IMG/VR virus record: IMGVR_UViG_3300009506_000044
Coordinates: 1 to 52,914 of that record
Origin: a virus
Taxonomy: Duplodnaviria > Caudoviricetes
Reading direction: 5' to 3' (one strand)
Length of the DNA stretch: 52,914 nucleotides
The notes under the pieces were generated by a model, which saw nothing but the letters and a program-made list of their open reading frames with translations, did not search any database and was not told the origin of the DNA. Shown here in pieces: positions 3,214 to 47,044 of the stretch. The position numbers and the translations under genes were made by a program. Each line of letters starts with the position of its first letter. Positions within the stretch are counted from its first letter, which is position 1.

Positions 3214-3347
3214 TCGATCTTCAGTGCTGTTAAAAGCGCTGTTGATCGACTGCAAGTAGCGGCATTTTTGCATGTTGTTATGTATATGCCATTTGTGTTT
3301 TGTTCTATATGTTGTGATTTTTATGGGACCAATTAATATATATTGGA

Positions 3348-3573
3348 GTCCAAGACGAACTATAGTGTGATGGTAACCTGATGAGTAATGAAGAAATCGT
3401 TGAACAGAATTTAGTCCAAGATGAACTATAGTGTGATGGTAACCCCCAACAAACTGCCTGTGTGTGATCAAGGCCAGCCAAGTCCAAGACGAACTATAGT
3501 GTGATGGTAACTATACTGAAGACGATTACATGGAAATACATAGTGTTCCGTCCAAGATGAACTATAGTGTGAT
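3348..3573 (+). CRISPR. Mini CRISPR array, 4 repeats / 3 spacers
   Basis: 30-bp repeat GTCCAAGAYGAACTATAGTGTGATGGTAAC at 3348-3377, 3414-3443 and 3482-3511, truncated copy at 3550-3573. Unique spacers of 36, 38 and 38 bp. Confidence 0.95.
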
Positions 3574-3590
3574 TTGATGGAAAGAGTAAA

Positions 3591-4895
3591 TTGAAGTGCA
3601 TTAAATTCAGAATAATAAAGGATCGTGAGTTTCCTCGGCTGTTTACCCTGCTTGACAAGTATTCTTACGCGATTAGCAGGGTTAAAAACCTCGGAATGAG
3701 CAAGTTGTTCGTGCAGCATCATACCGAAATTATTCCTTTTTTAGATTCCGAGAAAGATAAAAATTTGCGAAAGGTGTTTCTCAGGGATCGTAAAAATGCG
3801 ATATCAAGGGATATATATGCAGACGCTGGAAATCTATACCCGTGGATGGTTTCTCATATTAAAGAGATGGCCGCGAAAGAGGTATGTGACAAATTCAAAT
3901 CGGACTGCAAGGAGGTGTGCTACTCGCTTAAAAAGTCTCTCGCATCATTTCGTCGGGATGGTTCTTTTTCTATGAGGTCGCGCAATTGCAAGTTTGTCCG
4001 CGTCGCGGACGATATTTTCCTTGAGACGAATCTGTTGTCAAAATCAACAAAGGCGCTGTCTGAGGTATGCGAAAAACCAAATAAAGACGAGGAATTTCCA
4101 AAAAAATTCAAACTTTTGTTGGCAACGCGAAACTTGAAAAATGGCCATCGTCAGGACTTAAAACGCATATTGTCAGGTGAATCAAAATTCGGTTCTCCTC
4201 GTTTCGTCAAGTCTAAAAACGGATACGATTTGATTGTACCGTTCGAACAACAAAAGGCGGAGGCGCAAACAGGCCTAACGATTGGTATAGACCTTGGTGT
4301 TAAATGCGCGTTTTATGGCGCGTCTGTTGACTCTTGGAAGCGCATCAAGCCTGAAGACACACATGAAATATACGCTAAAGCGATGCAATTCAAGAAGCGG
4401 CGCAAACAATATCAAAAGCAAGCAAAAGTTTCAAATCGAAGTGGACGTGGTAGGCGCCATGTGTTGAGACCGTTAGAAAAACTTAGCACATCCGAACGTT
4501 ATTTTAGAGAGACGAAGTACAAGCAATGGGTGCGAATGATCATTGATTTTTGCTTAAATTATGGATTTTCGGTAATCGTCTTGGAAGACCTTAATAATCT
4601 AAAAAAAGACAACGCCTTAATTGCTAAATGGGCGCCGTTTAAGTTTCAAGAGTTGTTGATTTTAAAGGCATCTGAGTTCGGAATAGATGTTTTAGTGATA
4701 AATCCTGCGGATTCCTCCAGGCGTTGCTCATGGTGTGGATATACAGCGGCAGAAAACCGTGTTTCGCGTGATTGGTTTCTATGTAAGCAATGCGGAAAAA
4801 AGGCCGATGCAGACCACAATGCCGCAAGAAATTTGAGTTCGCCGCTTTTTTATCAGGGAAGAATGTCTTCTGGTGTTTGCGAGGAAATATTCTAG
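3591..4895 (+). CDS. cas12f: Cas12f (type V-F, TnpB-related) RNA-guided nuclease
   Basis: RuvC I IGIDLG, RuvC II VLEDL, Zn ribbon CSWCG...CKQCG, RuvC III DADHNAARN; 434 aa; adjacent to the array and tracr-like RNA. Confidence 0.85.
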   Translation: MKCIKFRIIKDREFPRLFTLLDKYSYAISRVKNLGMSKLFVQHHTEIIPFLDSEKDKNLRKVFLRDRKNAISRDIYADAGNLYPWMVSHIKEMAAKEVCDKFKSDCKEVCYSLKKSLASFRRDGSFSMRSRNCKFVRVADDIFLETNLLSKSTKALSEVCEKPNKDEEFPKKFKLLLATRNLKNGHRQDLKRILSGESKFGSPRFVKSKNGYDLIVPFEQQKAEAQTGLTIGIDLGVKCAFYGASVDSWKRIKPEDTHEIYAKAMQFKKRRKQYQKQAKVSNRSGRGRRHVLRPLEKLSTSERYFRETKYKQWVRMIIDFCLNYGFSVIVLEDLNNLKKDNALIAKWAPFKFQELLILKASEFGIDVLVINPADSSRRCSWCGYTAAENRVSRDWFLCKQCGKKADADHNAARNLSSPLFYQGRMSSGVCEEIF

Positions 4896-10346: not shown

Positions 10347-10762
10347 TGCCTAACGCTATCACTCTTGCAGATGCTATTACCACAGAGCTTAACGCGACGT
10401 CGTTTTCGCAGGCGTTTTCGGCTACGCGAGAGTATAGTCCGGTGTTCGCATTGCAAGACACGGATGCGCTCACGGTCGTTGTCGTGCCGGTAACGCGCGA
10501 ATCTTCGATGATATCGCGTGCCGCAGACGCTGTGATCTATGGCGTCCAGGTCGGTGTGTTGTACAAATTTGCGAACGAGATTTCGTGCGACAATTTGCTG
10601 TCGTTGTGCGAGGAAATCGCTGATCACTTCCGAAAAAAAACGCTGGCGTCAATATATTTCTGCACTGAGCGGATAATCGATCCGCTCTTCGACGCCGAAT
10701 GGATCGTCGATAACAAACAATTCGCGTCAATCATTACCCTAAAATTCAAGGTTTTAGGATAG
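10346..10762 (+). CDS. Putative tail terminator/completion protein
   Basis: Synteny and size. Confidence 0.5.
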   Translation: MPNAITLADAITTELNATSFSQAFSATREYSPVFALQDTDALTVVVVPVTRESSMISRAADAVIYGVQVGVLYKFANEISCDNLLSLCEEIADHFRKKTLASIYFCTERIIDPLFDAEWIVDNKQFASIITLKFKVLG

Positions 10763-10775
10763 GAGATAAGTAACT

Positions 10776-11192
10776 ATGGCTCATGTACTTGGAATGAATT
10801 GCAAGGCGTACTACGGCACCGCCGGAAGTACTGCCAGTACTGAGTTGACGAACGTCCGCGACGTGACCATCAACCTTGAAACAGGGGAAGCTGACGTCAC
10901 AACGCGAGGAAACTCAGGGTGGAGGGCCACGGCCGCAACCTTGAAAGAGGGTTCGGTTGAATTCGAAATGATCTGGCAAGATGGCGGAGACGCAGGATTT
11001 ACCGCGATTGAAACGGCATGGACGAACGCCACGGCGATCGCCCTGGCGTTTCTGGACGGTGCCGGCGGGAGTGGGCTGGACGCGGATTTTACGATTACGA
11101 ATTTTTCGCGTTCAGAGCCACTTGAGGACGCCGTAAAAGTGTCTGTTACTGCGAAACCGACGTATTCAACCCGCGCTCCGTCGTGGTCTTAG
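10776..11192 (+). CDS. Major tail tube protein
   Basis: EADVTTRGNSGWR, ITNFSRSEPLEDAVKVSVTAKP. Confidence 0.8.
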   Translation: MAHVLGMNCKAYYGTAGSTASTELTNVRDVTINLETGEADVTTRGNSGWRATAATLKEGSVEFEMIWQDGGDAGFTAIETAWTNATAIALAFLDGAGGSGLDADFTITNFSRSEPLEDAVKVSVTAKPTYSTRAPSWS

Positions 11193-32235: not shown

Positions 32236-34428
32236 ATGTGCGATTATGAAAGTTTTTTGGAATCTAAGGTTATAAAGGCGCCATCGAGCGGTATAGACGT
32301 CACTCCAGACAATCCTGCTCTATACGATTTTCAACGCGCCATAACCGCGTGGGCGCTGAGAAAAGGCCGGGCTGCAATATTTGCTGACTGCGGTCTCGGA
32401 AAAACGATAATGCAGTTGTGCTGGGCGCGTGAAGTTCACCGGCACACCGATAGAGAAGTGTTGATACTGGCACCTCTCGCTGTTGCTGCTCAGACCGTCG
32501 AAGAGGGACGCAAGTTCGGCATAGAGGTTACATACCGCCGCAAAGGATCCGTTGGCGGAATAACGATAACTAACTACGAAATGCTAAAGAATTTCGACCC
32601 GGAATTATACTCCGGCATTGTCCTGGACGAAAGCTCTATCCTGAAAAGTTTCTCTGGTAAGATACGCAATTTCATCATAGACAGCTTCAAAATAACACCA
32701 TACAGGCTTGCATGCACTGCCACTCCGGCTCCTAACGATCTAATGGAACTCGCCAATCATGCAGAGTTCCTTGGAATCATGAGAAGGGAGGAAATGCTCT
32801 CCACATTTTTTTTCCATGATTCTGGAAATACCTCTAAATGGGTAATTAAGGGGCATGCTGAATCAGATTTTTGGAAATGGGTGTGCTCTTGGGCTGTCAT
32901 GCTGAATTATCCATCAGATATTGGATTCAACGCTTCTGGATTTGAGTTGCCAGAGCTGAGAATGCACGAGGAAATCGTTTCGGTTGAAGAATGGGGGAAC
33001 TACCTTTTCGCTATGGAAGCACAATCCTTGCAGGACCGCATAAAAGAACGGCGGCGCACGGTGGCCGCCAGGGTGGAAAAGGCAGCAGAAATATTATCGA
33101 GATTCAATGGCGATCCCGCCATTGTCTGGTGCAATTTGAATATGGAATCATCGGGAGTGAAAAAGCGCTCTGGATGTACCGAGATCGTTGGCAGCGAGAA
33201 GGCGGAAGTGAAAGCAAAAAAAATGCTCGACTTCTCAGCAGGAAAGATAAAAAAACTGGTCACTAAACCTAGCATTGCTGGGTTCGGAATGAACTGGCAG
33301 CATTGCAACAATGTAATTTTTTTGGGGCTGTCAGACAGTTACGAACAGTTTTATCAGGCGCTTAGAAGGTGCTGGAGATTCGGACAGAAAAAACCAGTCG
33401 ATGTCTATATCGTGATTGCTGAAACGGAGGGGGAAGTCCTTGCGAACATAAAGCGCAAGGAGCAACAGGCAAAAGAAATGCGACAGGAAATGGTGAAAAA
33501 CATGCAGGATATTACCAAGCGCGAACTAGGGCATAGCGCAGAGGACATAGAGGTTTACGATCCCGAATCGACATCTGGTAGCGGCTGGACTGTCCATAAC
33601 GGGGACTGCGTAGAGATAATGCGGACAATTGAATCAGAGGCTGTCGGGTATTCGATATTTTCGCCACCGTTTTTGAGCCTGTATAGTTACTCTGACAGCA
33701 ATCGAGACTTCGGAAATTCTAAGACGGATGGTGAATTCTACGAGCATTTTCGCTTTTTTGCGGACGAACTGTACCGTGTTATCATGCCTGGCCGCAATTT
33801 CTCTTTTCATGTGGCCAATGTTCCATGCGCAAAATGGCTACATGGCTATATCGGGCTGAGGGATTTTCGTGGAGAGTGTATCAGACTTTTCCAGGACGCA
33901 GGTTTCATATTTCACAGTGAGGTCTGTATTTGGAAAGATCCGGTTACTGCGATGCAGCGAACAAAGGCGCTCGGTCTTCTGTACAAGCAGCTCAAGAAGG
34001 ACAGCGCTATGTCTCGTCAGGGAATTCCTGATTACCTGATCACGATGAAGAAATGGGGCGATAACCCCGACGCAATCGAACAAAAGCCTGAAAACTTCCC
34101 GCTTTCCAAGTGGCAGAAGTACGCTAGTCCGGTATGGACAGATGTAAACCAGAGTAGAACACTGCAATACAGGAATGCCCGCGATGAAAAAGACGAAAAA
34201 CACATATGCCCTCTACAGTTAGATGTAATTGAACGAGGACTGGAATTGTGGAGCAGGCCTGGAGATTTGGTACTATCTCCGTTCGCTGGTATCGGTTCTG
34301 AAGGCTATGTGGCCGTGTCGATGGGACGCGAATTCGTCGGTATAGAACTGAAAAAATCATATTACCGTGTGGCATGTCAAAACTTGGTATCTGCGGAGAA
34401 CTGCTATCAACAGCAGTTTTTGTTTTAG
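32236..34428 (+). CDS. SF2 (SNF2-like) helicase fused to N4/N6 DNA methyltransferase
   Basis: DCGLGKT, LDESS, TATP, QALRRCWRFGQ; methyltransferase motifs FSPPF and SPFAGIGSEG. Confidence 0.9.
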   Translation: MCDYESFLESKVIKAPSSGIDVTPDNPALYDFQRAITAWALRKGRAAIFADCGLGKTIMQLCWAREVHRHTDREVLILAPLAVAAQTVEEGRKFGIEVTYRRKGSVGGITITNYEMLKNFDPELYSGIVLDESSILKSFSGKIRNFIIDSFKITPYRLACTATPAPNDLMELANHAEFLGIMRREEMLSTFFFHDSGNTSKWVIKGHAESDFWKWVCSWAVMLNYPSDIGFNASGFELPELRMHEEIVSVEEWGNYLFAMEAQSLQDRIKERRRTVAARVEKAAEILSRFNGDPAIVWCNLNMESSGVKKRSGCTEIVGSEKAEVKAKKMLDFSAGKIKKLVTKPSIAGFGMNWQHCNNVIFLGLSDSYEQFYQALRRCWRFGQKKPVDVYIVIAETEGEVLANIKRKEQQAKEMRQEMVKNMQDITKRELGHSAEDIEVYDPESTSGSGWTVHNGDCVEIMRTIESEAVGYSIFSPPFLSLYSYSDSNRDFGNSKTDGEFYEHFRFFADELYRVIMPGRNFSFHVANVPCAKWLHGYIGLRDFRGECIRLFQDAGFIFHSEVCIWKDPVTAMQRTKALGLLYKQLKKDSAMSRQGIPDYLITMKKWGDNPDAIEQKPENFPLSKWQKYASPVWTDVNQSRTLQYRNARDEKDEKHICPLQLDVIERGLELWSRPGDLVLSPFAGIGSEGYVAVSMGREFVGIELKKSYYRVACQNLVSAENCYQQQFLF

Positions 34429-34436
34429 GGTGATGC

Positions 34437-35798
34437 ATGAAAATAGACATACCCATCTTCGACCTGAGACACCCAAAAAGTATCCCCGGTAGGAAAAACG
34501 TTGATATTATGCCGGGTGGAGAGGTCTACATTTCGAATCGATTTGGAGAGATCACGGTTAAGTATCTCTCCAGATCATCGGTTATAAGCCCAGAAGACAT
34601 GAAAACGTTCTGGGCTGTATTCAACCTTACCAAGTGCGCTGAAAAAAAAGGTGAATACTACAGGATACCCATAAGAGAGGTTGTTGCCGTAAGAGGACTA
34701 AAGCCGAAAGGTGATATTTTTAAAAGGATAAGGCAATCTCTCATAAAATTGAGATTCGTAACGCTTTCCTCTAACAGGGAAGTCTGGACAGAGCTTGGAA
34801 AGCGTGAACAGTTTTCTCTTAACGGAATGATATCCGATATCATCTTCGATATTACACACCTTTTCATGGGTGGACAAAAGGAATATTTTGACATTTCTTT
34901 TGGTGCCATTTACAGAGAAGCCATTTTGCATCCAGAGAAGAGAGTTGCCATACCTGGGCAGATTTTGAAATTATCAGGCATGGATTTTAATCTGGCAGTA
35001 TTTCTGGCCGGGCAATCCCTTAAAGAAGAGAAGAAACATTTTAATACAATGGATCTTCTAACAGAATCTCTTTTCCATCACAGCGAGACAGCCAGGCATC
35101 AACCTTGGAAGTCTAAAAGGATATACAACAGCCTAGAAAGATTAAAGGTCAAAAAAATAATAAAGGGTTTCAAAAAAACGAAAAACAATGTTGTTTTGAT
35201 CACCTTTTTTACAGGGAAAAAACCCGTGACCTTGAAGTACGAAACCCGTGACCTTGAAGTACGAACCCGTGACCTTGAAGTACGAACCCGTGACCTTGAA
35301 GTACGGAGCGATCACGAGCGGTCAATCATACCAACGACTTGTGAAGGCAAAAATCCGTCTAACTCTTTATCTAACTCCTTCCTTCCTAAAGAAGGAAGCT
35401 TGAAGGAAGGAAGGAAGGAAAAGAGAGAGTTGTTGTCTGAATTCAACTTGTACCCTCCGATTTTGGAAAAAGCTCTTGAATCGGATTTCACAGATCTTGT
35501 TAGTCTTATTTGCTATTCGAGACATCACTCACCAGACAATCCTGCAAAATTAATCGCATACCGAATACAGCACAATCTTCCTGTTACTGACCACGAATTG
35601 AAGTCCATCCAAGATATGCATGCCGAGAAGAAAGCGGCAAACTACACCCGCCTCAAAAAGAAACTTGCGATGTCAAGGATGAACAATGGTGGATTGTCCT
35701 GGAAAGGGCAACCGGTCAAACGCATATCGGACGCTGGAATTACAACGGACGACGGTCTTTTTTTCTGGGGGGACATTCGAACGGAGGACCTTGCATGA
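34437..35798 (+). CDS. Replication initiator (Rep)
   Basis: Upstream of dnaB; contains internal iterons; basic wHTH-like N-terminus. Confidence 0.7.
   Translation: MKIDIPIFDLRHPKSIPGRKNVDIMPGGEVYISNRFGEITVKYLSRSSVISPEDMKTFWAVFNLTKCAEKKGEYYRIPIREVVAVRGLKPKGDIFKRIRQSLIKLRFVTLSSNREVWTELGKREQFSLNGMISDIIFDITHLFMGGQKEYFDISFGAIYREAILHPEKRVAIPGQILKLSGMDFNLAVFLAGQSLKEEKKHFNTMDLLTESLFHHSETARHQPWKSKRIYNSLERLKVKKIIKGFKKTKNNVVLITFFTGKKPVTLKYETRDLEVRTRDLEVRTRDLEVRSDHERSIIPTTCEGKNPSNSLSNSFLPKEGSLKEGRKEKRELLSEFNLYPPILEKALESDFTDLVSLICYSRHHSPDNPAKLIAYRIQHNLPVTDHELKSIQDMHAEKKAANYTRLKKKLAMSRMNNGGLSWKGQPVKRISDAGITTDDGLFFWGDIRTEDLA
35221..35305 (+). repeat. Four 21-bp iterons, probable origin of replication
   Basis: AACCCGTGACCTTGAAGTACG x4 (35221, 35243, 35264, 35285) inside rep, followed by a strand-asymmetric GAAG tract. 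Confidence 0.85.
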
Positions 35799-37076: not shown

Positions 37077-37361
37077 ATGACGCCGATACAGGAGATAATA
37101 CCTACGGTGATGGAGCGCGTCAACACACGCTCCGTCATCTGGCGTCTGCTGGTGATCCACAAGCGGATCGCGGCGGGCGGATACCCGAACGCTAACACGC
37201 TGGCGCGTGATCTGGAGTACAGCCCACGGACGATCCAGCGCGACATCGAGTGGGCCAGGGACATGCTCGGGGCGCCGGTGCGGTACGACCAGTGGCGGCG
37301 CGGTTACTACTACGACAACCCCAGATGGCTGGAGGGAGTATTATGCACGCTACACACTTGA
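37077..37361 (+). CDS. Stand-alone winged HTH (like the N-terminus of WYL regulators)
   Basis: YPNANTLARDLEYSPRTIQRDIE...GYYY. Confidence 0.75.
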   Translation: MTPIQEIIPTVMERVNTRSVIWRLLVIHKRIAAGGYPNANTLARDLEYSPRTIQRDIEWARDMLGAPVRYDQWRRGYYYDNPRWLEGVLCTLHT

Positions 37362-38089
37362 TCGGACGTCATCTCAAAACGACCGGCGCGGCGGACATGC
37401 CGGAACGGTGTTGCCTTTGTGAATCGGAAGGCATCCAGGGGTTCCGCCGCAAGCAGGTCATCGCGTCCGGGTTCATGGACGTCGGCTACCTGCGTCCGAC
37501 GGATTGGATCTGCAGGTACTGCGCCGCGTGCCTCGGGTATCAGCAGGGCCGCACCGGCTTGGTGCGGAATTTCTCCTTCGTGGCGGGGGAAAACGCGCTG
37601 CAGTTTTTGAAGCGTGAGGAGATTTGGCACGTCATGACCGATCCGCCGGAACCGCCTTTCGTCCTGGGGGTAACGTACTCCCACAAAAAACACATCTCGT
37701 TCAAGGCGGCCGTGAATCTCAGCCGCACGCATTTCTCCGCATCGACGGAGGCCGGACATGTCCAGGTGAACCCGGACGGCGATGCCACGCTGAAAGGCAC
37801 TATGCAGCGGTGGTACACGATCTGCAAGCCGACAAAGACAGAACCGACGTGGTTCACGAAGGCGCACGTACTGCAAGGCTGCGACAATTTCAAGCGCATC
37901 GAGGAATACGGCACGGACCAGTATTTCGCAGACGATGCGATTATCCGCCCGTATCGGCACACTGCTCTCCTGGAGCTGTATGCCTATGCGCTCAATAAGG
38001 GACCGGTTCCGGAGCAGGCCCCGGAACCGGAACCAGAGGGAAAAACAGAATTTTCGACACGCAAAAACGGCCAGATGGCCATGTTTTAG
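37343..38089 (+). CDS. csf1: Type IV Cas8-like subunit Csf1
   Basis: CCLC...ICRYCAAC Zn motif; PPEPPFV...KKH...A.VN; precedes csf2; RBS GGAGGGAG. Confidence 0.75.
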   Translation: MHATHLIGRHLKTTGAADMPERCCLCESEGIQGFRRKQVIASGFMDVGYLRPTDWICRYCAACLGYQQGRTGLVRNFSFVAGENALQFLKREEIWHVMTDPPEPPFVLGVTYSHKKHISFKAAVNLSRTHFSASTEAGHVQVNPDGDATLKGTMQRWYTICKPTKTEPTWFTKAHVLQGCDNFKRIEEYGTDQYFADDAIIRPYRHTALLELYAYALNKGPVPEQAPEPEPEGKTEFSTRKNGQMAMF

Positions 38090-38098
38090 GGAGATTTT

Positions 38099-39310
38099 AT
38101 GATCAAGATTGAGTACACTTTTCGGACCAAAGGACCGTTACACACGGGGTCGGACACCAATGCCGGGACGCTGCGGAGTTTGCGTCGGCAGAAATGTATC
38201 CTGGCCGACCCGGTGCAGTACGAAACGAAATTGACCGAACAATCCAGGCGGGACGCCGTGTGCAATATCGCCCTGGCGGTGTGGTTCGCTATCCCAAAGG
38301 ACGGGATCAAGGGCAAGCGGATGATGGGGATCTGGGACGAATTCGCCAACAAACTGACCGCGGCGGCCAGGGCTTCCAACAAATACCAGTTTCTAGAAAA
38401 CATTTGCAGGTCCTGGGGCATCGAGTCGATCACCTACCCGGCGCTGTTGCGATCCATCGACGCCCTGTCGGATTGGGAGTTGCTGGATACCGTGCGCAAC
38501 GAATCCATGTACGTGGTCCTGAAGACTCGCGCCATGCGAGACGAATCGAAACAGGATGAGGTTGGCTGGGAAAAATACCTGACGGATCTGGAAGTCACCA
38601 CCACCGATCAGCGCCCGGTGGAACGCCTAGAAGACATGATTCCCTGTATCAGCGGAAATTCGTTCCGGGGACGCCTACGGCGCCTGGCAATGCACGATTT
38701 TTGTCAGCGCATCGGTCTGAAGAAAATGGATAAGCGGGTGTACCACACGCTGTTTACCGGCGGGTTCCTGGACCAGAGCACGCAGAATGAGGACTTCGAG
38801 AAGATGGAGAAGTTTGTCTCAATGTGTCCGATGCTGGGCGTTCTGGGCGCTGCCATCGGAAACATGACGATTGAGGGCGACCTGAAAATGGGATGGGCCT
38901 ATCCGTTCTGCCGGGAACGCGGCACCGGCCAGCAGTCGTACTGGAACTATATCGACACGGTATTCCAGACGCGCCACGACAGCTCTAAAACCGAAAAACA
39001 GATCGAGTTGACCGGAGACGACCAGACCCAACAGATGAAGTACGAGTATGAAGCGTTCGCGGATGGCACGCCGTTCGAGCACCGTATTGCCTGCGTCTCG
39101 ACGGATGAGTTGATCATCGCGGCGTTCTGGCACCTCATCAGCCTGTGGAAGGCAAATCCATACATTGGCGGGATGGGCGCCGTGGGCGCCGGAGAGTTGG
39201 TCCTGGATTTGAAAGAACCCGCGAAGTCGCTGTCGAAGCCGTACCTGAAGGCCATCATGGAGGATGGAGCAGAAGAAATGCGCGAGTTCTGGGGAACGGT
39301 GACGATATGA
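38099..39310 (+). CDS. csf2: Type IV Cas7 (Csf2) with inserted Cas11-like helical domain
   Basis: PLHTG, IPCISGNSFRGRLRR, LFTGG, LGVLG, Gly-rich loop IGGMGAVGAG; ~140-aa helical insert. Confidence 0.85.
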   Translation: MIKIEYTFRTKGPLHTGSDTNAGTLRSLRRQKCILADPVQYETKLTEQSRRDAVCNIALAVWFAIPKDGIKGKRMMGIWDEFANKLTAAARASNKYQFLENICRSWGIESITYPALLRSIDALSDWELLDTVRNESMYVVLKTRAMRDESKQDEVGWEKYLTDLEVTTTDQRPVERLEDMIPCISGNSFRGRLRRLAMHDFCQRIGLKKMDKRVYHTLFTGGFLDQSTQNEDFEKMEKFVSMCPMLGVLGAAIGNMTIEGDLKMGWAYPFCRERGTGQQSYWNYIDTVFQTRHDSSKTEKQIELTGDDQTQQMKYEYEAFADGTPFEHRIACVSTDELIIAAFWHLISLWKANPYIGGMGAVGAGELVLDLKEPAKSLSKPYLKAIMEDGAEEMREFWGTVTI

Positions 39311-39975
39311 GATCATGGAAGCTGCACGTGCGTTTCTATTCGCCGTGCGTGTTTTACCACCGTCCGCTGTTGGATGCGCTGCTTTCATACGCGCTGGAGC
39401 GGAGACATCAGCCGTACCGCTGCATGTATATCGCCCCGAAATGGCGCAACCGTGATCCGGTAGGCATCCCGCATCTTCAGGATGTCGTGCAATGCTTCGA
39501 TGATATCCCGTTGACCACGCAGATGCGGGCGGTTGGACCGGAGTTGCCGTACCTGGATTCGTGGAAAAAACGGTTCCACTCGAAAGATTTTCGACTTATT
39601 CGCTGGGGACGAGGATCACACAAAATCAATACGGCCAGCGGGAAATACCGGTCGTACAATATGCCGCTGCCGGCGAAAACAATCAATGCGGCCTGGTTCG
39701 GATTCGTCGGAGACGGGCCTGCAGTATTGGATTTGATGCGGTCGCATCTGTTTGCCATCGGGAAAAAAGCGAGTGATGGTTTCGGCATCGTGGACGAATA
39801 CCGTCTCGAAGAGGCTGACCTGGACGCCGTTGACATCCTCGCGCTGCGGCCGGTGCCGTTGCGTGTGATCGCGCAGAAAAACCTGCCGCTGTCAGGCGAG
39901 GCAAAACAGGTGGCCTACAAGCCGCCATATTGGGATAATTGCAATGTTGAAGCATGCGTTTGTCCTGCGCTATAA
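39307..39975 (+). CDS. csf3: Type IV Cas5 (Csf3)
   Basis: LDALL, IGKKASDGFG, RPVP, YKPPYW; ATGA overlap with csf2. Confidence 0.8.
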   Translation: MRSWKLHVRFYSPCVFYHRPLLDALLSYALERRHQPYRCMYIAPKWRNRDPVGIPHLQDVVQCFDDIPLTTQMRAVGPELPYLDSWKKRFHSKDFRLIRWGRGSHKINTASGKYRSYNMPLPAKTINAAWFGFVGDGPAVLDLMRSHLFAIGKKASDGFGIVDEYRLEEADLDAVDILALRPVPLRVIAQKNLPLSGEAKQVAYKPPYWDNCNVEACVCPAL

Positions 39976-40657
39976 GAGCAGGGCGTTCCAGCAGAAAATC
40001 GAGAAAGCCGAGCGCCAGATTGCGGCAGCGTTCGAGGCTCACTTCGGATGGCACGTTGCGTTTTCCGGCGGGAAAGACTCCACGGTGGTGTTGGATCTGG
40101 TACGCCAGTACAAGCCTGACATCACGGCGATATGGTCTGACGACGAATGGTGGCTTCCGGAGACGGGAGAATACATGGACCGGATGAGAAACGCAGGGGT
40201 GAACGTCCACCAGATCCAGACGCGGGCGACGCATGCCGAGTGGTTCAGCACGAACCAGGGCGCCGAGTGGTCAGGCGTACCAGAGTACGCCGCTTCGATC
40301 GGATCACGTGGATGCTTCCTGGGGCTGCGGGCGCAGGAAAACGGATACCGCCGTAGGTATCTCCGCCGGTATGGACTGTTACACTACGCGAAATGTAACC
40401 AGCAGTGGCAGTGCAACCCTATCGGGTGGTGGAAATTCGATGACGTCTGGGCGTATATCCACGGGCGCGAGCTGGATTACAACCGCGCTTACGATCGCCT
40501 GGCGGAAATCGGCATTGATGTCCACCACCAGCGGATTGGACCACTGGCATGCGAGCGGGCCGTCGGATATGGTCAGCTTGCAATACTCAAAATGGGATGG
40601 CCGGAACTGTTTTCACGGTTCGCAGCGGCACATCCGGAGGCAAACCAATATGTTTAG
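39944..40657 (+). CDS. PAPS reductase-like (CysH-like) protein of type IV-B
   Basis: FSGGKDS PP-loop, GLRAQE, PIGWW..DDVWAYI, YDRL. Confidence 0.88.
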   Translation: MLKHAFVLRYKSRAFQQKIEKAERQIAAAFEAHFGWHVAFSGGKDSTVVLDLVRQYKPDITAIWSDDEWWLPETGEYMDRMRNAGVNVHQIQTRATHAEWFSTNQGAEWSGVPEYAASIGSRGCFLGLRAQENGYRRRYLRRYGLLHYAKCNQQWQCNPIGWWKFDDVWAYIHGRELDYNRAYDRLAEIGIDVHHQRIGPLACERAVGYGQLAILKMGWPELFSRFAAAHPEANQYV

Positions 40658-40708: not shown

Positions 40709-41730
40709 GTGAGCGGGAAGGTGATCTCGATGCGTGCATGCCGCACGGTATGCTGCCCGCACTGCGGAATTGCGTTAACCTGCCATTTTCCGCTTAACAA
40801 GGAGTTGGGCATGTCATCCTGCCCGACGTGCAGAGGGAAGATCCAAATACGCAATATGAGCGGTCGGTTGCTGGTATCGCCCGTGAAGTTCTCTTTTATA
40901 CGAGGTGCGTCAGTGCATATTTTGCGTGGCGCACAGATGGAATGGGGGTGGTGAGTGAGCGCGCGCCTGAAGCTCGCGGAGATCCGTGGCCACCTTCGCG
41001 ATCTGCGCACGCCGCAGGCGGACCACATTGCCGGGGAGGTCTTGCGTTGGATCGGCTTGCCTGCGGATACGCTGATCAGGGGAGACCTGCGTGACGTGAT
41101 TCTGCGAGCGTTGGAGGATTACAGCCGAAAGGAGGTGCACCGTGGGTGAGCGCAGGCTATCGAGGCGCGATTACTTCGCGGGGGTGATCCTCGCGGAACT
41201 GTTGCGCGGCGATGTGCGACGTGACGAGACATACGGCCCGGAGTGGTACGCGCATGTGTGGCGCATGGCAGATGAAATGCTGGCCGCCGAGCCGGGCGTG
41301 GAGATCGGCGCGTATTTTTCGCAGGTGAGCGCCGAGCGGTTGCAGGAGATGCGGACATTGCAGGGGGACATTGCGGTAGACATCACGCGTGCGGTGCTCT
41401 CCGTGATTTCACCTCCGGAGCTGCGCGCGTCGTGCGTGCGGAAGGAGGTGGCGAGTGAGTGAGCGTGACGAAGAACTGGCGGCGTTCGACCACTGGCTAG
41501 CGGGATACATGCGCGAGGTGCAGGGGCCGGCCACGTTCGCGGTGGCTCAGATGCGGGAAGCCTGGCTCGCAGCGCGGGAACATTGCGATGATGCGCTCGC
41601 CGAGTGGATCGCGAAGGCCCTGACGCGCGCTCATTTCAGGGGATCGATGGTGCTGTCCGGCGTCTACGAGGATGCCAAGGAGAATTACATGCGTGTCGTG
41701 CGTGAGGCGATGCGGGAACGGGAACACTGA
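40709..41730 (+). other. Run of small hypothetical genes (40709-40954, 40955-41149, 41142-41462, 41455-41730)
   Basis: Overlapping GTG starts with GGAGG-type RBS; the first has CPHC/CPTC. Confidence 0.55.
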
Positions 41731-41812
41731 CAACAGTGTACCTCCGCCCGCTGGGGAACCGGTCCCCGGCGGGCATCCAAACGGGGGTACACGCAACAAA
41801 CGGGGGTACACG

Positions 41813-42169
41813 ATGGATTTAGCGTTGAAATTGCGGCACGACGTAGCCGCATGGAACATCTGGCGGGAGCAGTTCCCCCAGGTGCAGATCGACCTGGCGG
41901 GCGCGAACCTGGAGAGCGCGTACCTGGCGGGCGCTGACCTGGAGAGCGCTGACCTGCGGTGCGCGAACCTGGAAAGCGCTGACCTGGCGGGCGCGTACCT
42001 GGAGAGCGCTGACCTGCGGGGCGCTGACCTGCGGGGCGCGAATCTGCGGGGCGCGTCCCTGTGGGGCGCGTCCCTGGCGGGCGCCATTTTATGCGACGCG
42101 AATCTGGACGGTGCGATAGTGTCGTACCGGGGAAAATGCGTGCGGATCGTTTTCGAGGAATCACGTTAA
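41813..42169 (+). CDS. Pentapeptide repeat protein
   Basis: A(D/N/Y)Lxx repeats after WNIWRE. Confidence 0.9.
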   Translation: MDLALKLRHDVAAWNIWREQFPQVQIDLAGANLESAYLAGADLESADLRCANLESADLAGAYLESADLRGADLRGANLRGASLWGASLAGAILCDANLDGAIVSYRGKCVRIVFEESR

Positions 42170-46972: not shown

Positions 46973-47044
46973 GGCCAGGTGGCGCAACGGTAGCGCGTCC
47001 GCCTTGTAAGCGGAGGGTTGCGGGTTCGAGCCCCGCCCTGGCCT
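46973..47044 (+). tRNA. tRNA with anticodon UGU (Thr), atypical acceptor, no encoded CCA
   Basis: Cloverleaf: GGCCAGG/CCTGGCC, D stem GCGC, TCCGC-CTTGTAA-GCGGA, GCGGG-TTCGAGC-CCCGC. Confidence 0.85.

Follow-up and report, generated by a model that had tools for sequence, protein, structure and literature searches.

Where does the small subunit reside in a type IV-B CRISPR effector operon that lacks a cas11 gene? The operon in question lies on a phage sequence, IMG/VR virus record IMGVR_UViG_3300009506_000044, which is classed as linear and about 84 % complete; its 52,914 bases, analyzed at full length, are referred to here as the window. Genes for a gpA-type terminase, a lambda-family portal, and an S49 protease lie near the start of the record, and genes for a DnaB helicase and a SNF2-methylase fusion lie 5′ of the operon. 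The fusion (32236-34428) is a 730-aa protein that joins a SNF2-type helicase to an N6/N4 DNA methylase. Directly 5′ of DnaB is a 453-aa ORF (34437-35798) with no Pfam match, in which four tandem 21-nt repeats (35221-35305) encode a repeated heptapeptide; the ORF may be an initiator gene that contains a replication origin, with the repeats as its iterons. A further ORF (41672-42169) consists mostly of 15-nt tandem repeats (12.9 copies) and, judged by eye, presumably encodes a pentapeptide-repeat protein. A lone tRNA-Thr (TGT) occupies 46973-47044, and Rfam at the gathering score returns tRNA only from the window.

The operon contains four tightly packed genes on the + strand (37340-40657) in the order csf1, csf2, csf3, and cysH-like, with a gap of 9 nt between csf1 and csf2 and overlaps of 4 nt between csf2 and csf3 and 32 nt between csf3 and the cysH-like gene. 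The first gene, csf1 (37340-38089), encodes the Cas8-like type IV large subunit (PADLOC Csf1_0_IV, E 1.1e-21), and csf3 (39307-39975) encodes the type IV Cas5 (PADLOC Csf3_0_IV, E 9.3e-27); their matches to TIGR03114 (E 2.4e-13) and TIGR03116 (E 5.2e-12) fall under the curated cut-offs. The cysH-like gene (39944-40657) is a type IV-B accessory with the PAPS-reductase fold (Pfam PAPS_reduct, E 1.2e-16) and is syntenic with csf3 in related loci. With csf1, csf2, csf3, Cas11 in the form of a domain, and an adjacent cysH-like gene, the locus belongs to subtype IV-B. Neither the DinG/Csf4 helicase nor Cas6 has a match (TIGR03117, PF01881) anywhere in the incomplete record, and no CRISPR array adjoins the operon, the sole array of the record being 33.8 kb away beside a Cas12f gene. 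According to the available portions of PMC7038947 and PMC8175902, the type IV-B gene set normally includes a separate cas11. As the preliminary description of this DNA had stated, the window has none: no such gene is found among six-frame ORFs of at least 40 aa, and two Cas11 HMMs (E ≤ 10) match the csf2 ORF only.

The csf2 ORF (38099-39310) encodes 403 aa and departs from the usual Csf2 layout near its N-terminus. The motifs LRRQK (aa 28-32) and IPCISGNSFRG (aa 181-191) are separated by 148 residues, and in alignment A1 the stretch from residue 30 to 182 (153 residues) is represented by only 15 residues in the insert-less relatives P0080 and P0081. The preliminary description, which took these motifs to be close together in Csf2, was therefore correct on this point. 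It placed the insertion at 38204-38632 (aa 36-178) and described about 140 helical residues between the motifs. AlphaFold2, run on the full-length protein with a 52-row alignment (mean pLDDT 89.3, pTM 0.84), places the helices at residues 47-163 but models the flanks at 30-45 and 168-182 as β strands, a long outgoing strand and its return. The model thus consists of an N-terminal segment (aa 1-45; 38099-38233) with β1 (2-10), a Gly-rich loop, and the ascending stalk strand; a helical domain (aa 46-165; 38234-38593) borne on the two-stranded β stalk; and a C-terminal part (aa 166-403; 38594-39310) with the descending stalk strand, IPCISGNSFRG, an RRM palm, and a thumb-like hairpin at about residues 285-320, the tip of which is modeled less confidently. 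Outside the helical domain and stalk, the protein adopts the Cas7 fold. Because strand β1 of Csf2 lies N-terminal to the helical domain, the insertion is genuinely nested. The HMM of the N-terminal segment also matches the start of an insert-less Csf2 (locus L010).

The non-insert part of the protein is an ordinary Csf2. It matches the PADLOC profile Csf2_0_IV at E 1.6e-43, and VIA comparison of the whole model gives Z 16.9, 16.6, and 16.0 to the Csf2 of types IV-A1, IV-A3, and IV-B, respectively; the top Foldseek matches of the whole model are type IV-A Csf2. The TIGR03115 score is 35.6 bits against a cut-off of 130, and the Pfam RAMPs match is also below its curated cut-off. The low TIGR03115 score is, as expected, consistent with a divergent and interrupted sequence, and position 29 of that profile is aligned with Csf2 residue 163. 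The architecture of about 400 aa, or fragments of it, recurs in 78 of 81 database proteins found, and mean identity over 47 relatives is 45 % for the insert and 54 % for the core. Some members of the inserted clade (P0078, 487 aa; P0074 and P0075, 427 aa) have an extra 20-80 residues past the Cas11 domain. Two candidates for N-terminal Cas11-Csf2 fusions without β1 (P0093 and P0102) were rejected as short gene calls, as their first residues align with the ascending stalk strand, and a candidate intermediate with a 75-aa insert (P0079) proved to be a 5′-truncated fragment of the long-insert protein P0078.

Sequence profiles identify the helical domain as Cas11. The insert alone matches the PADLOC typeIV_Cas11 profiles PDLC01695 (E 7.6e-15, positions 9-107 of 122) and PDLC01694 (E 4.7e-8), and a Pfam search of the insert returns no family. 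A profile of seven insert segments, from the window and six MAG loci (alignment A2), matches 339 of 1.84 billion representative proteins at E ≤ 0.001. Among the best 150 of these 339, 45 are long proteins (about 355-490 aa) in which the match covers roughly residues 44-165, and six are pieces of long proteins of this kind. The other 99 are short (85-183 aa) and match along their full length; 95 of them begin with M. A stand-alone set (alignment A3) was formed from 85 of the 99, leaving out nine that match only from about profile position 17, three likely fragments or cut sequences (P0083, P0164, and P0200), and P0203 and P0216. All 85 match PADLOC typeIV_Cas11. Comparison of A2 with A3 by hhalign gives a probability of 99.9 % (E 2.6e-35, 109 columns), and the csf2 ORF is the sole match in the window to an HMM built from stand-alone Cas11 only (E 1.5e-30). 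Insert and stand-alone Cas11 have the motif R-x-E ... Y-x-V-L-x-x-R in common. In three of the first ten related loci (L008, L009, and L010), the insert HMM matches ORFs of 118-129 aa directly 5′ of an insert-less csf2; these ORFs occupy the canonical cas11 place and therefore count as evidence that the insert is type IV Cas11. Against PDB sequences, the best match of the insert profile is a weak one to Cas11c (E 0.19), the Cas11 of 7JHY is not matched, and phmmer with the whole protein returns core matches only (Cas7c and Csf2). The A3 profile matches both 7jhy_h (E 9.3e-6) and 11fs_N, the type IV-C 'Cas11c' (E 9.3e-7).

The fold of the domain leads to the same family. Searches with the whole model return Cas7-like chains only, and because the core fills that match list, the insert was folded separately (pLDDT 83.7). 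Among 48,161 PDB representatives, the sole chain at Z ≥ 5 is 7jhy_h, named 'Csf4 (Cas11)' by its depositors, which aligns with 111 of 125 residues at Z 11.4 and an rmsd of 2.7 Å; the next chain has Z 4.4. Foldseek with the insert alone ranks 7jhy_g first, with TM scores of 0.67/0.59 and an E-value of only 0.15. By sequence profiles, fold, and genomic position, the insert is a type IV Cas11 homolog. The central claim of the preliminary description, a Cas11-like small subunit inserted in Csf2, is borne out by PADLOC, by both the profile-profile and the Foldseek comparison with type IV-B Cas11 that it had proposed, and by the 27 of 27 loci in which the domain replaces the cas11 gene.

Those loci come from the survey of homologs that had likewise been suggested. 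It covers 90 related loci, 80 from IMG/VR and 10 from genome contigs, the latter being MAGs labeled Syntrophobacteraceae, Desulfobacteraceae, Paludibacter, Bacteroidales, Kapaibacterium, and others. The loci were sorted with HMMs for three Csf2 parts and Cas11 and with iterated HMMs for Csf1, Csf3, and CysH. Cas11 lies inside csf2 in 27 loci, and in 62 an insert-less csf2 is directly preceded by a separate Cas11 ORF, with 104-353 nt between the end of that ORF and the point where the Csf2 core match begins; in the one other locus, csf2 abuts the contig start. Every checkable locus therefore has Cas11, always in exactly one of the two forms. No second Cas11-like ORF is found in any of the 27 inserted loci, and since the window likewise has no other, the insert is termed a Cas11 domain and not a Cas11 subunit. 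Within the inserted clade, a cysH-like gene often lies between csf2 and csf3 (L006, L014-L029, and others), and csf1 is downstream in L018, L019, and L027.

Uncultured phages carry the inserted form widely, and it is frequent among metagenomic phage contigs. No full-length copy was found in 50,697 deposited phage records; of 72,556 plasmid records, 32 match, but their matches begin only at about residue 151, and none covers 80 % of the query. This absence from deposited phage and plasmid records may be the reason that surveys of finished genomes missed it.

The trees point to a single origin of the inserted forms as the simplest and likely reading. A quick-search tree of the Cas11 domain (139 rows, 113 columns) has a branch with SH-aLRT 91 that sets apart all 46 inserted domains. 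The 122-aa protein P0164 groups with them; it starts inside the first helix, resembles the inserted form, and is probably a fragment of it. When the insert is left out and the tree is built from the Csf2 core alone (90 rows), a clade with support 100 unites 26 of the 27 inserted rows. The exception, L089, is long-branched and falls outside the main inserted clade, so two origins are possible, and this locus may represent either a second origin or a long-branch effect. Forcing all 27 inserted rows together costs 1.8 log-likelihood units, and monophyly is not rejected (p-AU 0.465). The L089 gene (7764-8972) is very divergent but encodes β1, then the Cas11 domain, then the core, and its Cas11 domain is matched by the stand-alone HMM only (E 1.8e-5).

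The closest viral relative of the window, L011, has an inserted Csf2 that is 62 % identical. About 950 nt 3′ of its cysH-like gene are 11 palindromic repeats (10411-11107) with a spacing of 65-66 nt that reach the contig end; on the opposite side are genes for capsid, a ClpP-like protease, and portal. This array may derive from the phage, from a host flank, or from a chimeric assembly. A simple repeat scan of the 90 loci found no array besides that of L011.

The phage of the window carries two CRISPR-derived modules. The terminase and portal genes enclose the second (3347-4895), a miniature type V-F system with an array of four 32-nt repeats and three spacers of 34-36 nt; the last repeat is degenerate, and an AT-rich stretch lies 5′ of the array. 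Directly after it is a gene for a 434-aa Cas12f (PADLOC Cas12f, E 1.2e-74), the PDB relatives of which include Cas12f-type proteins of 422-432 aa at E 1e-34. Its RuvC-like motifs are presumably intact, judged by eye. The spacers have no significant match in the window or the 90 loci, and the 90 loci contain one weak partial match to a Cas12f homolog only (L087). A plasmid that carries a type IV-B system beside an inactivated Cas12b3 and a mini-array appears in a figure legend of PMC12669027.

Taken as a whole, the locus is very probably a phage type IV-B effector operon with Cas11 nested in Csf2, each protomer of which is predicted to feed both filaments of the complex. The template is 7JHY, in which, as far as the accessible text of PMC7937560 describes it, a backbone of six Csf2 carries a belly of five Cas11, with every Cas11 placed on a Csf2-Csf2 interface. 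The Cas11 domain stands at the tip of the hairpin between strand β1 and helix α1 of the Cas7 fold. This hairpin is drawn out into a stalk, with about 15 residues in each strand, that would allow the domain to stand clear of its own palm. In the proposed mechanism, each protomer would add its Cas7 part to the major filament around bound RNA, and the stalk would place its Cas11 part in the minor filament, above a Csf2-Csf2 interface in the position seen in 7JHY. The result would be an obligate 1:1 ratio of Cas7 to Cas11 from one gene, and six conserved basic positions of the domain would line the target-strand path. These are R50, R74, K85, K95, R133, and R144, which are basic in 88-100 % of the 49 insert-carrying rows of A1; the domain has a net charge of -2, so any basic patch is local. 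Contribution of each protomer to both filaments is inferred. A predicted two-copy complex of the full protein scores 0.00 against a mark of 0.42 in a run without controls, a result that speaks neither for self-assembly nor against it.

The effect on stoichiometry would be small. Accessible sections of PMC13676074 give seven Cas7 and six Cas11 for the type IV-C complex. Native Cas7:Cas11 is thus already n to n-1, and a covalent 1:1 arrangement would add only one extra Cas11 domain, at one end. The preliminary description had proposed that the fusion fixes Cas7:Cas11 at 1:1; it is indeed predicted to fix the ratio, but it changes that ratio little from the native 6:5 of 7JHY and 7:6 of type IV-C. 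As the canonical ratio is near 1:1, the fusion would fix the ratio more than change it.

A different and unlikely role is that the Cas11-derived domain was repurposed in cis and forms no minor filament, acting instead to gate or block access of the target strand or to dock the CysH-like protein or Csf1. A figure legend of PMC7937560 has the Csm3 catalytic loop (residues 27-35, Asp36) facing the target strand. Mapped by sequence position and not by superposition, the insertion hairpin of Csf2 (β1 to the IPxISG-motif helix) is taken to correspond to this catalytic-loop region, and a domain placed there could occlude the target path. Repurposing would also accord with the binding of heterogeneous RNA by type IV-B complexes, for which the published passages available report no known target activity. 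However, the domain has lost neither the signature motifs nor the complete fold of the stand-alone protein, and no locus has a second Cas11, so the ancestral role must either be filled by the domain or not be needed. Lengthening of the stalk also suits a need to reach a distant position, which speaks against a role in cis.

The proposal that the locus lost cas11 and that the insert is a helical accessory domain peculiar to this lineage, with no relation to Cas11, is refuted and retains a very slight probability. Type I Cas7 proteins have helical 'fingers' that offer a comparison for such a domain. The lack of a Pfam family in the insert would suit it, and small helical bundles can match one another by chance. 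However, two independent Cas11 profiles match the insert, the HMM and hhalign comparisons with stand-alone Cas11 concur, and the lone structural match is 7 Z units above background. An assembly or gene-calling artifact, in which three adjacent genes of a metagenomic virus record are read as one, is less probable still and is refuted by the same unbroken frame in 27 independent loci from different samples and about 78 database proteins, and by the single confident model of the full chain.

The closest characterized system is the type IV-B system of Mycobacterium sp. JS623 (PDB 7JHY; PMC7937560), which has the same subunit families as the phage locus by fold (the Csf2 core and Cas11 domain matches given above). 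It likewise contains csf1, cas11, csf2, and csf3 with an associated cysH-like gene and is without Cas6 or DinG. In JS623, the parts of that paper available describe a separate Cas11 of 162 aa, encoded between csf1 and csf2 and present at five per six Csf2. In the phage locus, Cas11 is instead a domain in each Csf2 and there is no cas11 gene, and the element is a phage and not a megaplasmid as in JS623.

Covalent joining of backbone and small-subunit modules is known from type III systems: III-E Cas7-11/gRAMP, III-Dv Cas7-Cas5-Cas11, and III-I Cas7-11i (PMC12669027, PMC11026444, and PMC8730458). These share with Csf2-Cas11 an evolutionary trend toward subunit fusion. In the sections of those papers available, however, they are end-to-end fusions with one Cas11 domain per fixed-length effector and no repeated subunit, whereas the Csf2-Cas11 domain is nested in the Cas7 fold, the fused unit is presumably a repeating protomer, and its origin is independent, from type IV Cas11. 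Other class 1 fusions are terminal and involve single-copy subunits, as far as the available text of their sources goes. Type IV-E joins the neighboring subunits Csf1 and Csf3, with no Cas11 in Cas7 (PMC7038947); type I systems have Cas8-Cas11 and nuclease-Cas11 fusions (PMC10910872 and PMC12669027); and III-H has Cas11 in place of the Cas10 C-terminus, not within Cas7 (PMC12669027).

No description of Cas11 nested in Csf2 was found in the full-text literature searched, in agreement with the preliminary description, which knew of none. The available passages of PMC7038947, PMC8175902, PMC7937560, PMC13676074, PMC12669027, and PMC11127173 do not mention such nesting, nor do the corresponding portions of PMC8730458, PMC10910872, PMC11026444, and two bioRxiv preprints. 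As far as these sources extend, a type IV-B system with Cas11 nested in Csf2 is new, and class 1 subunit fusions known already are all end-to-end. The preliminary description would have given up its reading for an insert unrelated to Cas11 or for fusions already common among Csf2: the insert is related, and the fusions are common in abundance but, as far as the literature search extended, not described before.

Type IV-B is the least understood subtype, and the accessible text of PMC13676074 and PMC8175902 describes its complete complex as unsolved and its function as unknown. Against this background, the presence of Cas11 as an inserted domain or a separate protein across the 90 loci, never absent where it can be checked, suggests that Cas11 is indispensable to the IV-B filament. 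The insertion marks the tip of the β1-α1 hairpin as the point where Csf2 comes closest to the small subunit. It also yields a three-protein system that is simpler to reconstitute, and it shows that class 1 effectors have been compacted by nested domain insertion as well as by end-to-end fusion. The phage-borne clade bears on why phages carry array-less CRISPR effector modules. With somewhat better than even confidence, Csf2-Cas11 can be read as a repeating Cas7-Cas11 protomer, in which one gene product would polymerize on RNA into both a backbone and a belly filament with a length set by the RNA, a convergent compaction that would have arisen once in phage-borne type IV-B. If this reading is true, the protein would differ from the fixed single-copy fusions of III-E, III-Dv, and III-I and would offer a minimal scaffold for working out the function of type IV-B.
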